A DNA stretch of 64,000 nt from a virus. Its lineage: Duplodnaviria > Caudoviricetes. The position numbers and the translations under genes are program-made. The stretch covers positions 32,001-96,000 of IMG/VR virus record IMGVR_UViG_3300021256_000057. The stretch is one strand, 5' to 3'. Below are positions 20,919 through 44,237 of this stretch, one piece after another. Under the pieces are notes generated by a model. The model ran no database searches. It worked only from the letters and a program-made list of their open reading frames with translations, and was not told the origin of the DNA. Every line of letters starts with the position of its first letter. Position 1 is the stretch's first letter.

Positions 20919-21233
20919 TTACAATTTTGCTACAAGAGCATCACTAGCATTGCCAACGTAAAGTTCACCAGTATCTACATCTTCGATCAAGATACCAGAT
21001 CTGTAACCGTTTGTCTCATTCCATGACATACCGATGATATCATAGTTCATAGACATAGGATCAAAAGTTCCTGCCATATCATCTGCAATGCCAGACTGCA
21101 CCATATCACGAAGCTCTTTCTTTGTGAACAGATACTCGCCAGGGAATCGCTTTGTTTGCTTACCGTACTTCTTGCCATTTGGAGCTGTCCACGCAGATGC
21201 GAGGATGCTTGATGATTTAATATATCTTACCAT
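20919..21233 (-). CDS. Leader-bearing small protein (MVRYIKSS)
   Basis: Conserved leader; GAGGTG RBS. Confidence 0.75.
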   Translation of the reverse strand: MVRYIKSSSILASAWTAPNGKKYGKQTKRFPGEYLFTKKELRDMVQSGIADDMAGTFDPMSMNYDIIGMSWNETNGYRSGILIEDVDTGELYVGNASDALVAKL

Positions 21234-21244
21234 GTTATATCACC

Positions 21245-21457
21245 TCATGAAATAATATCAGATATCCGATTCAAGGAGTCTTGAATACCTTCAGATGCAA
21301 GATATACCTGACTCGTAGCTGCGTCATTGTCATTTATTTCAGACATAATGCGCTTTGCCTCAGCAATGATAATTCTGCACTCCTTCAATATAGATTGCTT
21401 GCCTGATGTATCAAGATCCATTGAATTGTAATATGCAGATTTAATATATTTCTTCAT
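21245..21457 (-). CDS. Leader-bearing small protein (MKKYIKSA)
   Basis: Conserved leader; GAGGTG RBS. Confidence 0.7.
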   Translation of the reverse strand: MKKYIKSAYYNSMDLDTSGKQSILKECRIIIAEAKRIMSEINDNDAATSQVYLASEGIQDSLNRISDIIS

Positions 21458-21468
21458 TTTATATCACC

Positions 21469-21909
21469 TCATGTAGGATCGTACTCAGAAAAATACATAT
21501 TCATCAATTCATGCGCTAAAGACGGGTCATCCTCCCCTGCTCTAGCAAGAGTATCATTGAAGTAGATCTTACCCTGAGAATTGAATCCACATAGATAATA
21601 CTCCCTAAACAGGATGATAAGCTGCTTCAGTTCTTCTGAATAATCTGTATCCCCTTTGTCGATAGCTGTATTGATGCGTTTGCATTTTTCAAGTATTTGT
21701 GTTTGTAATGCAGTGCGCTGCGCTGACTGCATCCGTGTCATTTGTTCTGACAGATCACTGACGACCTTTGATTGATCTGTAACAGACTTTAGTATCTCCT
21801 TTGTATATCTCTTACCTGGATTGATCTTCTCCCAGTTATTAAGCACTGCAACGAGTACGGCAGATACAACAGGAGCTAAAACTGGAGCCAACTCTTTTAT
21901 AAATTCCAT
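21469..21909 (-). CDS. Membrane-anchored holin-associated-like protein
   Basis: N-terminal TM, coiled coil, Y..CG.N..G motif. Confidence 0.45.
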   Translation of the reverse strand: MEFIKELAPVLAPVVSAVLVAVLNNWEKINPGKRYTKEILKSVTDQSKVVSDLSEQMTRMQSAQRTALQTQILEKCKRINTAIDKGDTDYSEELKQLIILFREYYLCGFNSQGKIYFNDTLARAGEDDPSLAHELMNMYFSEYDPT

Positions 21910-21924
21910 TATGATCAGCTCCGA

Positions 21925-22266
21925 TCAATATTCAACGTCTTTAATGACCCATTTAAGGTATTGATCTGTCTCCTTGTCGCATAGAGGGCATACACCAGAG
22001 ATCTTCTCTACCTTTTGATCGGATTCTACAAGAGCGGATATGAATAGACCGTGACATCTATCGCACTCTGCAAGGAAGTGATTTGCCACGTTGTTATCTA
22101 CTTCAATATCGACCTCATCTTCATCAATATCCTCTATGGTATCTTGGATGTCATCTACACTGTCAGAAATGTCATCGATTCTGTCTGCTAGTCCAAAGTC
22201 CTGCATATCATCCGCATAGATCTTCGATGCAGCAGTTACATTTTTCTTTTTCTTTGATATCTTCAT
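21925..22266 (-). CDS. Leader-bearing acidic protein with C-terminal zinc ribbon
   Basis: MKISKKKKNVTAAS; CDRC...CPLC. Confidence 0.7.
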   Translation of the reverse strand: MKISKKKKNVTAASKIYADDMQDFGLADRIDDISDSVDDIQDTIEDIDEDEVDIEVDNNVANHFLAECDRCHGLFISALVESDQKVEKISGVCPLCDKETDQYLKWVIKDVEY

Positions 22267-22339
22267 CGCTGTTCACCATCCATGTACGTCCGTCCCATTT
22301 GTGCATGAGACGGACGATGATATTCAAAAAGATGTATTA

Positions 22340-41545: not shown

Positions 41546-41569
41546 GCCATCTCACCCCCGGCAATAGTA

Positions 41570-42427
41570 TCAGAGCCGCAAAGAACCGCCCTTGTTGAAG
41601 TCATCTTGCATCATATCAAGAAGTCGAGCTTTCATGTCGGTTCTGTCAGAAGCATATTCAATGAGTTTATCCTTATTGTCGTAGATGAATTGATCTGCTA
41701 CGGCATCCTTCTTAGCAAGCTCAAAAATGAGATCAAGTGCAAATGGGAATCCATCCATCAAAAGTGATAGTACACCCCTGTAGTCGCTATCCCGAATAAT
41801 GTACATACATCTCTGGATAGCATCAGTGAAATTACTTACACCATCGGTGTATGACACATCTAGTGTTAGATTTGGAAACTTGATCGTTCTTATTGATGTG
41901 CAATCCTTAAATGCATGTGGCAGTAATTGAGTGTTTAGTGATTTAAACTCGATTGATCGTAGATTTGTACATTTGTTAAACGCCTTTGGCAGTAGTCTGA
42001 ACACACTACGAGGGATTGTGATAGTCCGCAGACTTACGCATCCGTAAAAATCATTGCTACCAATGGCGCTAAGACTATCTGGAAGTTCTACATGTTTTAG
42101 ATTCTTGCATCCGGCAAACACGGAAGCACCCATATTTGTAAGGTTTTTAGAAAACACAACTGTTTCTAGGTTTTTACACAGCATGAACGCAGAGTTATCG
42201 ATTCTATCAACAGTATCAGGCATGATGATCTTTTTTAATGTCTCGCACTCATAGAACGCTGTGCTTCCAATCGCTCTGATACCATATGGAATCGTGTAAG
42301 TCACACCGAATGCATCTTCATCCTCTTCGTAGTCAAAAAATACATCATTTAAGAACGTTCCTTTTCCAGGACCACCATCATGGTCGACTTTTAGTACATC
42401 ATTTGCTGCACGAATATACCTTACCAT
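41570..42427 (-). CDS. BspA-type LRR_5 protein with MVRYIRAA leader
   Basis: LRR_5 repeats plus the conserved leader. Confidence 0.9.
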   Translation of the reverse strand: MVRYIRAANDVLKVDHDGGPGKGTFLNDVFFDYEEDEDAFGVTYTIPYGIRAIGSTAFYECETLKKIIMPDTVDRIDNSAFMLCKNLETVVFSKNLTNMGASVFAGCKNLKHVELPDSLSAIGSNDFYGCVSLRTITIPRSVFRLLPKAFNKCTNLRSIEFKSLNTQLLPHAFKDCTSIRTIKFPNLTLDVSYTDGVSNFTDAIQRCMYIIRDSDYRGVLSLLMDGFPFALDLIFELAKKDAVADQFIYDNKDKLIEYASDRTDMKARLLDMMQDDFNKGGSLRL

Positions 42428-42428
42428 C

Positions 42429-43151
42429 TCACTTCACCTCCGACAAGTTGACCCATCCAAGAATATCCAGAACATTTCCCTTGGAATCCTTGTTCTTTGT
42501 GATAGGTCTCCGATCATACTGCTCAAGTACATTGTCATTCTCATCATGCCACCAGTAAAACTCACCAGCATATGTTCCGAATGGTGTCTTTGCAACAGAG
42601 GTCTTATACAGACGAACGTGCTTTGTACTGAGTGAAGTTTCCTTTACAGTATCATTCTTAGAAGATGTCTCATGACGTGCCTCTTCCGTGACAGCAGTAT
42701 TATTCTCCTTTGCTACCTCTGGCTTCTTAGCTCTAGGCTTACGAACCTTCTTAGTCTCTTCCATTGTAATATCCAACTCCTTTATAAGCATCCTGGTCAA
42801 GATCCTTACACGAGCTTGACGTGATGGATCCGATATACCATTATATATGTATATAAGGTTTTTCGACCATTTTGACTCATAAAAAGAGTCATAAACTGCA
42901 TCACAGACTTCTTTATCCTCGATATAGCAGAACTTTTCTCGAATCATTTTTGCTTCATGTTCATTTCTTCGAGCTGTAAGATCGGAGCTGTCCGGCAGAG
43001 TGCCATTTATAACATGTGTGATAGCTTCAGAGTGAGATATTCGATTATCATATTTTTCAGCGAGTGCTCTTGCATCTTTAGCGACTTGTAGAACCAGGTG
43101 ATATGGAGCTGTACTTGCGTTTAGTTCCTTTAAGAACTTAGCGTCCTGCAT
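42429..43151 (-). CDS. Hypothetical protein with a likely internal in-frame start at 42764
   Basis: 240-aa ORF; internal AAGGAG RBS and late motif. Confidence 0.65.
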   Translation of the reverse strand: MQDAKFLKELNASTAPYHLVLQVAKDARALAEKYDNRISHSEAITHVINGTLPDSSDLTARRNEHEAKMIREKFCYIEDKEVCDAVYDSFYESKWSKNLIYIYNGISDPSRQARVRILTRMLIKELDITMEETKKVRKPRAKKPEVAKENNTAVTEEARHETSSKNDTVKETSLSTKHVRLYKTSVAKTPFGTYAGEFYWWHDENDNVLEQYDRRPITKNKDSKGNVLDILGWVNLSEVK

Positions 43152-43584
43152 TTCTCACTCGTCTCTTGCATTTCTTGCCCATACCGATCTGGATAGACTT
43201 TGGACTTACAAGCCGCCTGCCGCATACGCTGCAAACACCACTATGGTAAAGATGCATCCGTTCGTCATAGTAGCCATCCTTGAACATCATCTTTAGGATA
43301 TATACTACGCCGAGTACGATCTCATTATCTCTTGCGAAATTTGAACACTTCGTCAGGATAAAGTGTCCGCCATTGAGCATACCCACATACTTCCATTCAC
43401 CATTATCGACCATGGTCTCAACGAATAGAGCAGAACGCATACGGCTCTTTGCACTCTTGTAGAAGCGGTAAGTATGATATACACCGCTATCAGATGTAAG
43501 TGTTACGATTGCATTTCCACCTGATAGATAGTCCTTGATAACATCTGTACCAAACAACTCGTTCTTTAGCAAAGTATTCTCCAT
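43138..43584 (-). CDS. DUF6011-like zinc-finger protein
   Basis: GNA.VTL.S..G.HTY and CSVCGRRL..P.SI..G.G..C. Confidence 0.75.
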   Translation of the reverse strand: MENTLLKNELFGTDVIKDYLSGGNAIVTLTSDSGVYHTYRFYKSAKSRMRSALFVETMVDNGEWKYVGMLNGGHFILTKCSNFARDNEIVLGVVYILKMMFKDGYYDERMHLYHSGVCSVCGRRLVSPKSIQIGMGKKCKRRVRNAGR

Positions 43585-43688
43585 AATGGACAGCTCCTTT
43601 CTGATGGTTACTCTACTATTTATAACGAGTGGTAGGTACAAAAAAACACCCTATGCTTGGTAGCATAGGGCGATGTTGATCATTCTGT

Positions 43689-44237
43689 TTACTTTTTGTA
43701 CAGGTGAATATTGTTCTCAAATGTTAAGTTATCCATTTTAACTTTTAGAGCATGTTCAGCATCACGATATGTAGAATAACTCTTATCATCTATATTGATA
43801 CTTATCAGTTTCCAGCTATATCCATCATAGAGAACTTTATCATATTGGCTGTTTCCACGCGCTTCATTATTATAATGATGTGTACGCCTAGCACGCTTGT
43901 CCTTGGATTCGTTCAATGGGTGGTCTGAAATGCGGAAGAATACAACGCACTTGATCGTTTTTCCAGAAACAGTATCTTTTTTCACAAATGTGTAATACTC
44001 AGATTTACTACCATCTCGATCACTTTCGTCAGCATCGATATATTTGAATCCGCAGCACTCAATAATGTCGATAGCAGTGATAATGAAGTCTTCATAGTCA
44101 CACAGCGCCTGACCTGTTAAATTTGTATCAATGCTTGCTGCAATCTCACCAGAGCCAATCATCTGGTAGACAAGATCAATATGCACTTCATATTCAATGA
44201 TATCAGGCTCTTCGTTACTTTTGATGTATCTAACCAT
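43689..44237 (-). CDS. Leader-bearing protein (MVRYIKSN), RISDHP family
   Basis: Paralog of 29204-29788. Confidence 0.8.
   Translation of the reverse strand: MVRYIKSNEEPDIIEYEVHIDLVYQMIGSGEIAASIDTNLTGQALCDYEDFIITAIDIIECCGFKYIDADESDRDGSKSEYYTFVKKDTVSGKTIKCVVFFRISDHPLNESKDKRARRTHHYNNEARGNSQYDKVLYDGYSWKLISINIDDKSYSTYRDAEHALKVKMDNLTFENNIHLYKK

Follow-up and report, generated by a model that had tools for sequence, protein, structure and literature searches.

A short N-terminal tag on unrelated proteins of an uncultured gut or rumen phage as a probable capsid-targeting, protease-clipped leader

We characterized a short N-terminal tag that recurs on otherwise unrelated proteins in a 64,000-nucleotide stretch of DNA (the window), which comprises bases 32001 to 96000 of a single IMG/VR virus contig (IMGVR_UViG_3300021256_000057; 183,567 bp, rated complete) and belongs to the 184-kb genome of an uncultured phage of the gut or rumen. 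The tag is a position-specific signal at the peptide level, and comparison of its sequence with those of the phage's prohead protease, scaffold, and capsid protein suggests that it is probably a capsid-targeting leader that the protease clips after Ala or Ser rather than after Glu. A preliminary description of this DNA had proposed a capsid-loading system like that of phage T4; the proposal gains from a gp21-family protease, a shared motif, leaders swapped between relatives, and a homologue in the cyanophage S-CREM2, while packaging, cleavage, and injection are still predictions.

The tag is 7 to 8 residues long and ends in [IV]-x-[AS], more fully [IV]-[KR]-[SA]-[SA]. A search of all six translated frames with the strict motif x-[VKY]-[RKY]-Y-[IV]-[KR]-[SAG] gave 11 matches in the window, and the same 11 are all that the whole 183,567-bp genome contains (starts at 21233, 21457, 28212, 28566, 29060, 29788, 32044, 32732, 39694, 42427, and 44237, all on the minus strand). 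Each stands directly after an ATG with a Shine-Dalgarno sequence upstream. From the phage's own residue frequencies, 0.001 matches would be expected at position 2 of its 220 genes and 0.25 inside genes, compared to the 10 to 11 tag starts and 0 internal matches that were seen. We also accepted two variant tags, at 32289 (MKRYIISK) and 33595 (MVRFIRPRYRSLFAS, with L-F-A-S at residues 12 to 15), and these together with the 11 strict matches are what remains of the approximately 14 tagged open reading frames (ORFs) counted earlier. The ORF starting at 39039 (MKRLITGG) was rejected; by Pfam (1.4e-18) it is an IS200-type Y1 transposase reduced to its C-terminal half, and it adjoins a TnpB gene. The start formerly placed at 32047 is a TTG three bases upstream of the real ATG at 32044. 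The 13 short-tag proteins, with lengths in amino acids (aa) and isoelectric points (pI) where noted, are as follows.

20919 to 21233, minus strand: tagged ORF, 104 aa; MVRYIKSS, then ILA-S; no Pfam or PHROG family
21245 to 21457, minus strand: tagged ORF, 70 aa; MKKYIKSA
27850 to 28212, minus strand: tagged ORF, 120 aa; MKKYVKAA; the start is the ATG behind AGGAGG, not the ATG upstream at 28236
28243 to 28566, minus strand: tagged ORF, 107 aa; MYYYIRSS
28581 to 29060, minus strand: tagged ORF, 159 aa; MVRYIKGN; acidic body, pI 4.2
29204 to 29788, minus strand: tagged ORF, 194 aa; MKRYIRSS; weak paralogue of 43689 to 44237
31826 to 32044, minus strand: tagged small acidic protein, 72 aa; MKRYIKAA
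32044 to 32289, minus strand: variant-tag ORF, 81 aa; MKRYIISK
32295 to 32732, minus strand: tagged ORF, 145 aa; MKRYIRST
32750 to 33595, minus strand: variant-tag ORF, 281 aa; MVRFIRPRYRS-LFA-S; phrog_30118 (function unknown)
39056 to 39694, minus strand: tagged protein of the S-adenosylmethionine (S-AdoMet or SAM) lyase family, 212 aa; MKRYIKSS-EG-IYA|SSFNR
41570 to 42427, minus strand: tagged BspA-type leucine-rich-repeat protein, 285 aa; MVRYIRAA
43689 to 44237, minus strand: tagged ORF, 182 aa; MVRYIKSN

We read five related genomes in full, compared their orthologues, and called tags in them by six-frame scans. Orthologues of the 72-aa protein carry the leaders MKRY-IKAA, MYRY-IKAA, MKYY-IRAA, MKRKITSSKVP-VTAA, and MKRRVISAQA-ITAA, which occupy shared alignment columns immediately ahead of the conserved body, and in the family of the protein starting at 15170 the conserved body is preceded by TITAA, AVTAA, AITAA, NIMAA, or MKKLIKS; leaders are interchangeable ahead of conserved bodies. 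The tag system is not unique to the phage of the window, and its relatives carry several dialects. In a 214-kb relative approximately 16 proteins start with MK[KR]L[IV][KR][AS], none of them with Tyr (15 strict matches compared to 0.0004 expected), and in two other contigs, from gut metagenome phages, adjacent genes carry MVKY[IV]K[AS], 7 of 21 in L055 and 7 of 10 in L058. Several homologues of the SAM-lyase-family protein begin with M-x-R-L-V-H-T followed by a spacer and then V-M-A|SS, an arrangement in which the N-terminal box stands apart from the putative cut site. The genome-wide switch at position 4 from Y to L points to one receptor per phage, and the dialects are what co-evolution with such a receptor would produce. 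The cultured 176-kb Streptococcus phage vB_SagM-GXN1 (PQ819873.1) has three small genes just downstream of its capsid gene (locus L060, 22903 to 25024) that start with MRLVRLTE, MRLVKLTE, and MRLIRLNE, which may be a Glu-type dialect of the same box. Contig L055 also holds a gene for the anti-restriction protein ArdA, untagged, in the same block as its MVKY[IV]K[AS] genes.

These comparisons bear on two alternatives in which the tag peptide would have no targeting role. The first is that it is a translation-start device supplying favorable first codons, or a recombination cassette at the 5' end of genes, with a peptide that does nothing in itself. Starts with MK- or MKK- are common in Firmicutes, the ribosome-binding sites of many tagged genes are alike (GAGGTGATAT), and mobile regulatory cassettes at gene starts are known from T4-type phages. 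However, the tag codons vary synonymously (Ser as TCA, TCT, or AGT; Arg as AGA, CGA, CGT, or AGG; Tyr as TAT or TAC), with differences at every position and across both Ser and both Arg codon families, and therefore the constraint lies on the peptide and not on the RNA. Moreover, the capsid, tail, and fiber genes, the most highly expressed class, lack the short tag, the whole-genome switch from Y to L in one relative is hard to explain by codon effects, and the tag motif aligns with VTAA and ITAA sites of orthologues that are not initial, all of which leaves this explanation with a slight chance of being correct.

The second alternative, that the tagged genes are one diverged paralogous family in which the tag is the best-conserved ancestral remnant, we consider highly improbable. 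It can draw on a few weak paralogue pairs found by BLAST (29788/44237, E value of 5e-8; 21233/32732, 5e-4; 28212/29788, 2e-3), the first two of which also qualify the earlier statement that similarity ends after the leader, as does a pair among the long-leader proteins described below (27833/31819, 1.5e-14). Most tagged pairs nevertheless share nothing past residue 8, as that statement had it, and the cargo includes unrelated folds, namely, the SAM-lyase-family enzyme and the BspA-type leucine-rich-repeat protein. The latter is one of three tandem paralogues (window positions 39785 to 42427, 31 to 42% identity), of which only the most upstream in transcription order is tagged, whereas its two nearest paralogues, at 39785 to 40669 and 40670 to 41545, have other N-termini and no tag. 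In other phages, finally, orthologues place the same body behind different leaders.

The link between the tag and head assembly comes from the protease encoded in the same block of genes, which belongs to the gp21 family by sequence and fold, and from the capsid protein gene beside it.

48497 to 50002, minus strand: prohead protease (gp21/S77 fold, residues ~10 to 150) fused to a coiled-coil scaffold, 501 aa; begins with MKNVKA-SS
47009 to 48478, minus strand: major capsid protein, identified by tblastn to annotated capsid proteins of large myoviruses; basic N-terminal leader of ~80 to 100 residues with conserved ITAG/VTAS islands

The first of these ORFs precedes the capsid gene and has a phrog_207 ("head maturation protease") match of 1e-20, and a tblastn search with its first 230 residues recovered 643 gp21 genes of T4-like phages at approximately 27% identity. 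A model of the protease domain (nine homologues; pLDDT, the predicted local distance difference test score, of 79) had T4 gp21 (5jbl) as its best fold match with a probability of 1.0, followed by herpesvirus assemblins with probabilities of 0.7 to 0.8. The remaining 270 residues, from approximately residue 230, are coiled coil, with lamin-like matches and coiled-coil Pfam matches, and the ORF is therefore a protease-scaffold fusion built like herpesvirus UL26 (PMC4498786). The genome was searched for S78, ClpP, and Prp proteases, with no match.

The same short motif that closes the tag is concentrated in this fusion, where [VI]xA[SAGN] occurs 10 times compared to 2 expected, a number that 0 of 200 shuffles reached; the capsid protein, the SAM-lyase-family protein, and the long-leader proteins are enriched in it as well. 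In an alignment of 11 related loci (54 to 67% capsid-protein identity), the scaffold islands EIAAST, RITASQ, VTAS, and RETVTAS are fixed amid a diverging coiled coil, and the first ~80 to 100 residues of the capsid protein are variable and basic except for a fixed P-[IV]-T-A-[GS]-T-S-I-T. The protease start M-K-N-V-K-A-S-S is itself tag-like, and relatives also have [VI]-x-A there.

We infer docking, cleavage after Ala or Ser, presence in the virion, injection, and an anti-defense role from these patterns, and they can be assembled into the following scheme. The tag would be a short N-terminal propeptide in which a basic and hydrophobic box, M-x-[KR]-Y-[IV]-[KR], overlaps a cut site that consists of [IV]-x-[AS] with [AS] behind it. 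The box would act late in infection, docking the protein onto the prohead scaffold core as it is assembled from the protease-scaffold fusion at 48497 to 50002, and after closure of the shell the gp21-type serine protease would cut behind the Ala or Ser of the tag, as it would at VTA-S, ITA-S, and IAA-S of its own scaffold and in the leader of the capsid protein. The mature cargo would thereby be freed inside the head, to leave together with the DNA when the next cell is infected. Leaders of the longer basic kind may be the same device with an added spacer.

One cargo is the protein at 39056 to 39694, which scores 32.6 bits with Pfam PF23780 (S-AdoMet lyase family; cut-off, 28) and whose database homologues carry the same domain; on this basis it is a predicted enzyme of the S-AdoMet lyase family. 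The preliminary description had taken it to be DUF3293-like, a family with which it scores less well. A total of 66 database homologues were obtained, and we analyzed the 59 with a recognizable SSFNR body start. In the three residues before SSFNR, the first is I or V in 56 homologues, the second is any of 11 residues, and the third is A in 45 and S in 5. The leaders range from 6 to 36 residues in length, and in the shortest the tag itself (MVKYVKA, MKRYVQA, or MKRLIYA) abuts the body. With P3 and P1 fixed and P2 and the leader length free, this pattern looks like a cleavage site, short of proof. Homologues with I-N-E or L-N-E ahead of the SSF body (P0049, P0050, and P0065) were considered as possible genes of Glu-cutting phages, but this lead was dropped for the comparison with S-CREM2; one of the contigs (L052) shows a replication module without shared tags.

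Only one homologue from a cultured phage covers most of this protein, the SAM hydrolase gp6 of S-CREM2 (27% identity, E value of 8e-13). It is an annotated virion protein of 414 aa that starts with MKDFDSFLEEFDRDQESLEE|SSLSRL, its leader MKDFDSFLEE being of the T4 style, and BLAST pairs its S-L-E-E|SS with G-I-Y-A|SS of the protein at 39056 to 39694. Mass spectrometry of CsCl-purified S-CREM2 virions detected 19 gp6 peptides, and the authors propose that the protein enters the cell to protect the DNA (PMC10665884). Two further proteins detected in these virions, gp13 and gp14, start with MKDLHSFLTE and (V)KRFDAFLTE, and their neighbors that are not listed as virion proteins have no such leader. 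The resulting consensus of gp6, gp13, and gp14, MK[DR][FL]x[SA]FL[ET]E (OR473000.1, 3000 to 14500; locus L064), is not mentioned in PMC10665884. One enzyme family therefore has a Glu-type leader and is virion-borne in the T4-like S-CREM2 and has an Ala-type leader here, which is the best available, if indirect, support for packaging.

Several observations weigh against reading the tag as a capsid-targeting, clipped leader. The motif [IV]-x-[AS] is short and only approximately 2-fold enriched in the first 10 residues of all genes, and the Ala before SSFNR in the SAM lyase family could belong to the folded body and not to a cut site. The protease ORF matches Pfam Peptidase_S77 (T4 prohead core protease) at 7e-6, just below the curated cut-off, and a sequence-profile search of the protease-scaffold alignment against solved structures recovered coiled-coil proteins only and no gp21. 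A complex prediction for the protease domain (residues 9 to 150) and the tagged 72-aa protein scored 0.00, which is evidence neither way. Helicase, RecU, endolysin, and homing-endonuclease genes lie among the tagged genes, and genome position is therefore no marker of virion genes. Finally, a homologue of the SAM-lyase-family protein in the chromosome of a metagenome-assembled genome of the Eubacteriales starts with MAKYVKA|SSFSRL (874-kb contig; locus L054, 6814 to 7428, and locus L061, 6001 to 6612). Ferredoxin-type and EamA transporter genes flank this lone copy, and the 6 to 10 kb around it contain no phage genes; therefore the tag can persist without a prohead.

This bacterial copy, which keeps its tag outside any phage context, is also what favors a different explanation, namely, that the tag is recognized or processed not by the head protease but by, for example, a host peptidase, a chaperone, or a modifying enzyme, and is unrelated to the capsid. 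However, the 2.1-Mb Eubacteriales genome is otherwise without the tag pattern, its one other match being a 22-codon ORF that lacks a ribosome-binding site, and the tag is therefore no general host signal; the copy is probably a captured phage gene with a fossil tag. On the phage side, the last three residues of the tag are the motif conserved in the scaffold and in the leader of the capsid protein, no Prp, S78, or ClpP protease accompanies it, and there is no orphan radical-SAM enzyme in the genome, whose only radical-SAM gene adjoins the gene for an anaerobic ribonucleotide reductase. Export by the host can also be set aside; the leaders (7 to 30 residues) are basic and have no hydrophobic stretch, in contrast to a Sec-type signal peptide (h-region of at least 10 residues, A-x-A), and because they lack a hydrophobic core they are not Sec signal peptides. 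We thus regard an unrelated processing or binding factor as unlikely, and the targeting-and-clipping reading as the probable one.

The tag's putative cut site also closes a set of longer leaders. The longer basic leaders reported earlier at 15170, 22266, 22801, 23172, 27833, and 31819 are as described, and the same kind of leader is also present on the protein starting at 45811, the capsid protein (48478), and the protease (50002, MKNVKASS).

15170 to 15634, plus strand: 154-aa protein, leader MKISKSTITA-A
21925 to 22266, minus strand: long basic leader MKISKKKKNVTA-AS on an acidic body (pI 4.2); relatives keep the body behind different leaders
22340 to 22801, minus strand: long basic leader ...KKRYTVKAN...RRVMA-SS on an acidic body
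22807 to 23172, minus strand: long basic leader ...RRRDVTA-S...PIKA-A on an acidic body
26103 to 27833, minus strand: 576-aa protein with a basic leader (RMVA-SS, SIKS-S)
30719 to 31819, minus strand: 366-aa protein, leader MKKRYTVFAN...AIRA-S; N-terminal part paralogous to 26103 to 27833 (E value of 1.5e-14)
45470 to 45811, minus strand: 113-aa head-module protein, leader ...TRRVMA-E; orthologues have RPIKA-E and RRVMA-E

In the long-leader proteins, the first 12 to 30 residues are strongly basic and the bodies very acidic (pI 4.1 to 4.6). The 576-aa protein has internal tag-like or cut-like sites, KKKYTVKA-A at approximately residue 133, CDNSVTA-S twice, and CDCVNA-S, and looks like a candidate polyprotein whose modules would be freed by the head protease.

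What the cargo would do is a separate matter. The protein at 41570 to 42427, listed as an LRR in the preliminary description, is by Pfam a BspA-type leucine-rich-repeat protein, while the phosphoribosyltransferase reported alongside it was found by neither Pfam nor PHROGs. For 11 of the 13 short-tag proteins, Pfam and PHROG scans gave no assignable function, the one match being to a PHROG family of unknown function (32750 to 33595), and an Atlas look-up of that protein returned only unnamed viral clusters. The idea of many probable anti-defense proteins thus comes down to a single SAM-lyase-family enzyme, the others having no assignable function, and our confidence that the cargo as a class consists of anti-defense effectors is much lower than for targeting and clipping.

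One could suppose instead that the leader does target the prohead and is cut there, and that the cargo is mainly core, scaffold, or DNA-condensing material for head assembly and not injected effectors. Many leader-bearing proteins are small and very acidic (pI 4.1 to 4.6), and T4 has acidic internal peptides. Moreover, the proteins starting at 22266 and 45811 and the neighboring 44310 to 45401 are conserved in relatives, and the absence of an assignable function in 11 of the 13 short-tag proteins would fit such material as well. The short-tag proteins, however, are almost all absent from relatives at 62% capsid-protein identity and are therefore dispensable for assembly, and one cargo belongs to an enzyme family known from anti-restriction whose cyanophage homologue is virion-borne. 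Head-assembly material is accordingly an unlikely description of the cargo.

The window from 15.6 to 64 kb is a single minus-strand block that comprises tail and fiber genes, the protease-scaffold ORF, the major capsid protein, the head-tail adaptor, and then approximately 45 mostly small genes. A search of the DNA of the head module against cultured phages gave no match. The block also holds ordinary untagged genes, for UvrD and SNF2 helicases, a RecU-like protein, a GH25 endolysin, and a NUMOD4 protein; the tag and not location defines the class. The plus-strand part of the window carries nucleotide-metabolism genes, including the radical-SAM gene beside the large ORF at 11315 to 13870, which is the one read as anaerobic ribonucleotide reductase. 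A 128-aa ORF at 7991 to 8377 on the plus strand, between two large plus-strand ORFs (717 and 649 aa), starts with MRIIASSIPAS and so has the I-x-A-S motif outside the minus-strand block. A mobile element lies within the cargo genes.

37666 to 39039: IS200/IS605-type element inside the cargo block, with an intact 380-aa TnpB (Cas12f-like TNB and OrfB_IS605 domains) beside a Y1 transposase of which the C-terminal 76 residues alone remain

Its Y1 transposase remnant ends 17 bases from the stop of the tagged SAM-lyase-family gene.

If the targeting-and-clipping reading is right, the load-then-clip principle of T4 extends, through a shorter tag of another sequence, to uncultured phages that infect Gram-positive anaerobes of the gut, and a gp21-family protease with apparent Ala/Ser cuts at assemblin-like sites in a herpes-like fusion would be a functional link supporting the kinship of phage and herpesvirus capsids. 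The tag would also allow candidate virion-delivered proteins to be picked out of metagenomic phage genomes by a simple rule on sequence, and the candidates so listed mostly lack a known function and, like genes in an arms race, differ from one close relative to the next. In addition, seven residues would make a convenient handle for packaging test proteins in phage particles. We tentatively suggest, holding it with somewhat less than even confidence, that large phages of Clostridia from gut and rumen, forming a wide clade, have a portable two-part leader (M-x-[KR]-[YL]-[IV]-[KR] plus [IV]-x-[AS]), a protease of gp21 fold and herpesvirus-type Ala/Ser specificity, and a private, fast-changing head cargo of 10 to 50 proteins, including enzymes such as a SAM lyase that would act before phage gene expression, with box and receptor co-evolving into Y, L, and VKY dialects.

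No paper came up in a full-text literature search with the tag strings, and what searches on prohead-protease leaders retrieved concerned only T4, phiKZ/SPN3US, and P1. The closest known system is that of T4, in which a capsid targeting sequence on IPI, IPII, IPIII, and Alt is removed by the prohead protease gp21 (PMC3012670, PMC9026906, PMC5694885), which also cuts the scaffold to pieces and trims the N-terminal propeptides of the capsid protein, of itself, and of the internal proteins (PMC5694885, PMC9026906). As in T4 (approximately 10 residues), a short leader stands at the extreme N-terminus of fast-evolving proteins that are unrelated beyond it, the protease shares the family and fold of gp21, the leader closes in the hydrophobic-x-P1 motif of that protease at what is here a predicted cut, and the protease and capsid protein hold the same motif in their own propeptides. 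Residues 4 and 7 of the T4 sequence direct targeting and residues 8 and 10 processing (PMC9026906), a layout that may be comparable to Y4 and I5-x-[AS]7 here, and the aromatic residue at position 4 that is important for T4 targeting is conserved in the tag. Unlike in T4, the apparent cut follows Ala or Ser, and in place of the T4 pattern of Glu in [LI]-x-E the tags have S or A and the 59 homologue leaders have A in 45 cases and S in 5. The tag also differs in sequence and is shorter (7 to 8 residues), the phage infects a Gram-positive anaerobe, its protease and scaffold form one fusion, and the present system is known from sequence alone. The preliminary description had called it much larger than that of T4, but the difference is modest, 13 short tags and approximately 7 long leaders compared to 4 T4 proteins. 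The S-CREM2 gp6 protein (PMC10665884) is homologous to that at 39056 to 39694, and in both the last three residues of the leader abut an SS[FL][NS]R body start, whereas the gp6 leader is of T4 type (L-E-E) and the protein is twice as long (414 aa).

Other phages resemble the system in part. The ejection proteins of phiKZ and SPN3US have long propeptides (PMC5694885, PMC10052503), and there, as predicted here, a gp21-like protease cuts many proteins inside the head at a short motif, with propeptides thought to target the prohead; unlike the tag, however, these are mostly at least 100 residues long, are not common to several proteins, and end in A/S-x-E. Phage P1 packages its Dar anti-restriction proteins in the head (PMC9024508, PMC12810830), a capsid-carried and injected anti-restriction cargo such as the phage of the window may also have, but their incorporation is ordered and proceeds via protein-protein contacts with no shared short cleavable tag. 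The herpesvirus assemblin (UL26) protease-scaffold has release and maturation sites, YLQA-T and VQA-S in pseudorabies virus (PrV) (PMC4498786). The phage protein differs in coming from a bacterial virus and in having T4 gp21 as its nearest relative in sequence and fold, and no herpesvirus is known to employ the site as a movable tag for cargo. As in assemblin, however, the protease is N-terminal to the scaffold in one reading frame and of the same fold class; the putative phage sites, [VIL]-x-A followed by S or T, and the tag's Y-[IV]-K-[AS] resemble the release site.

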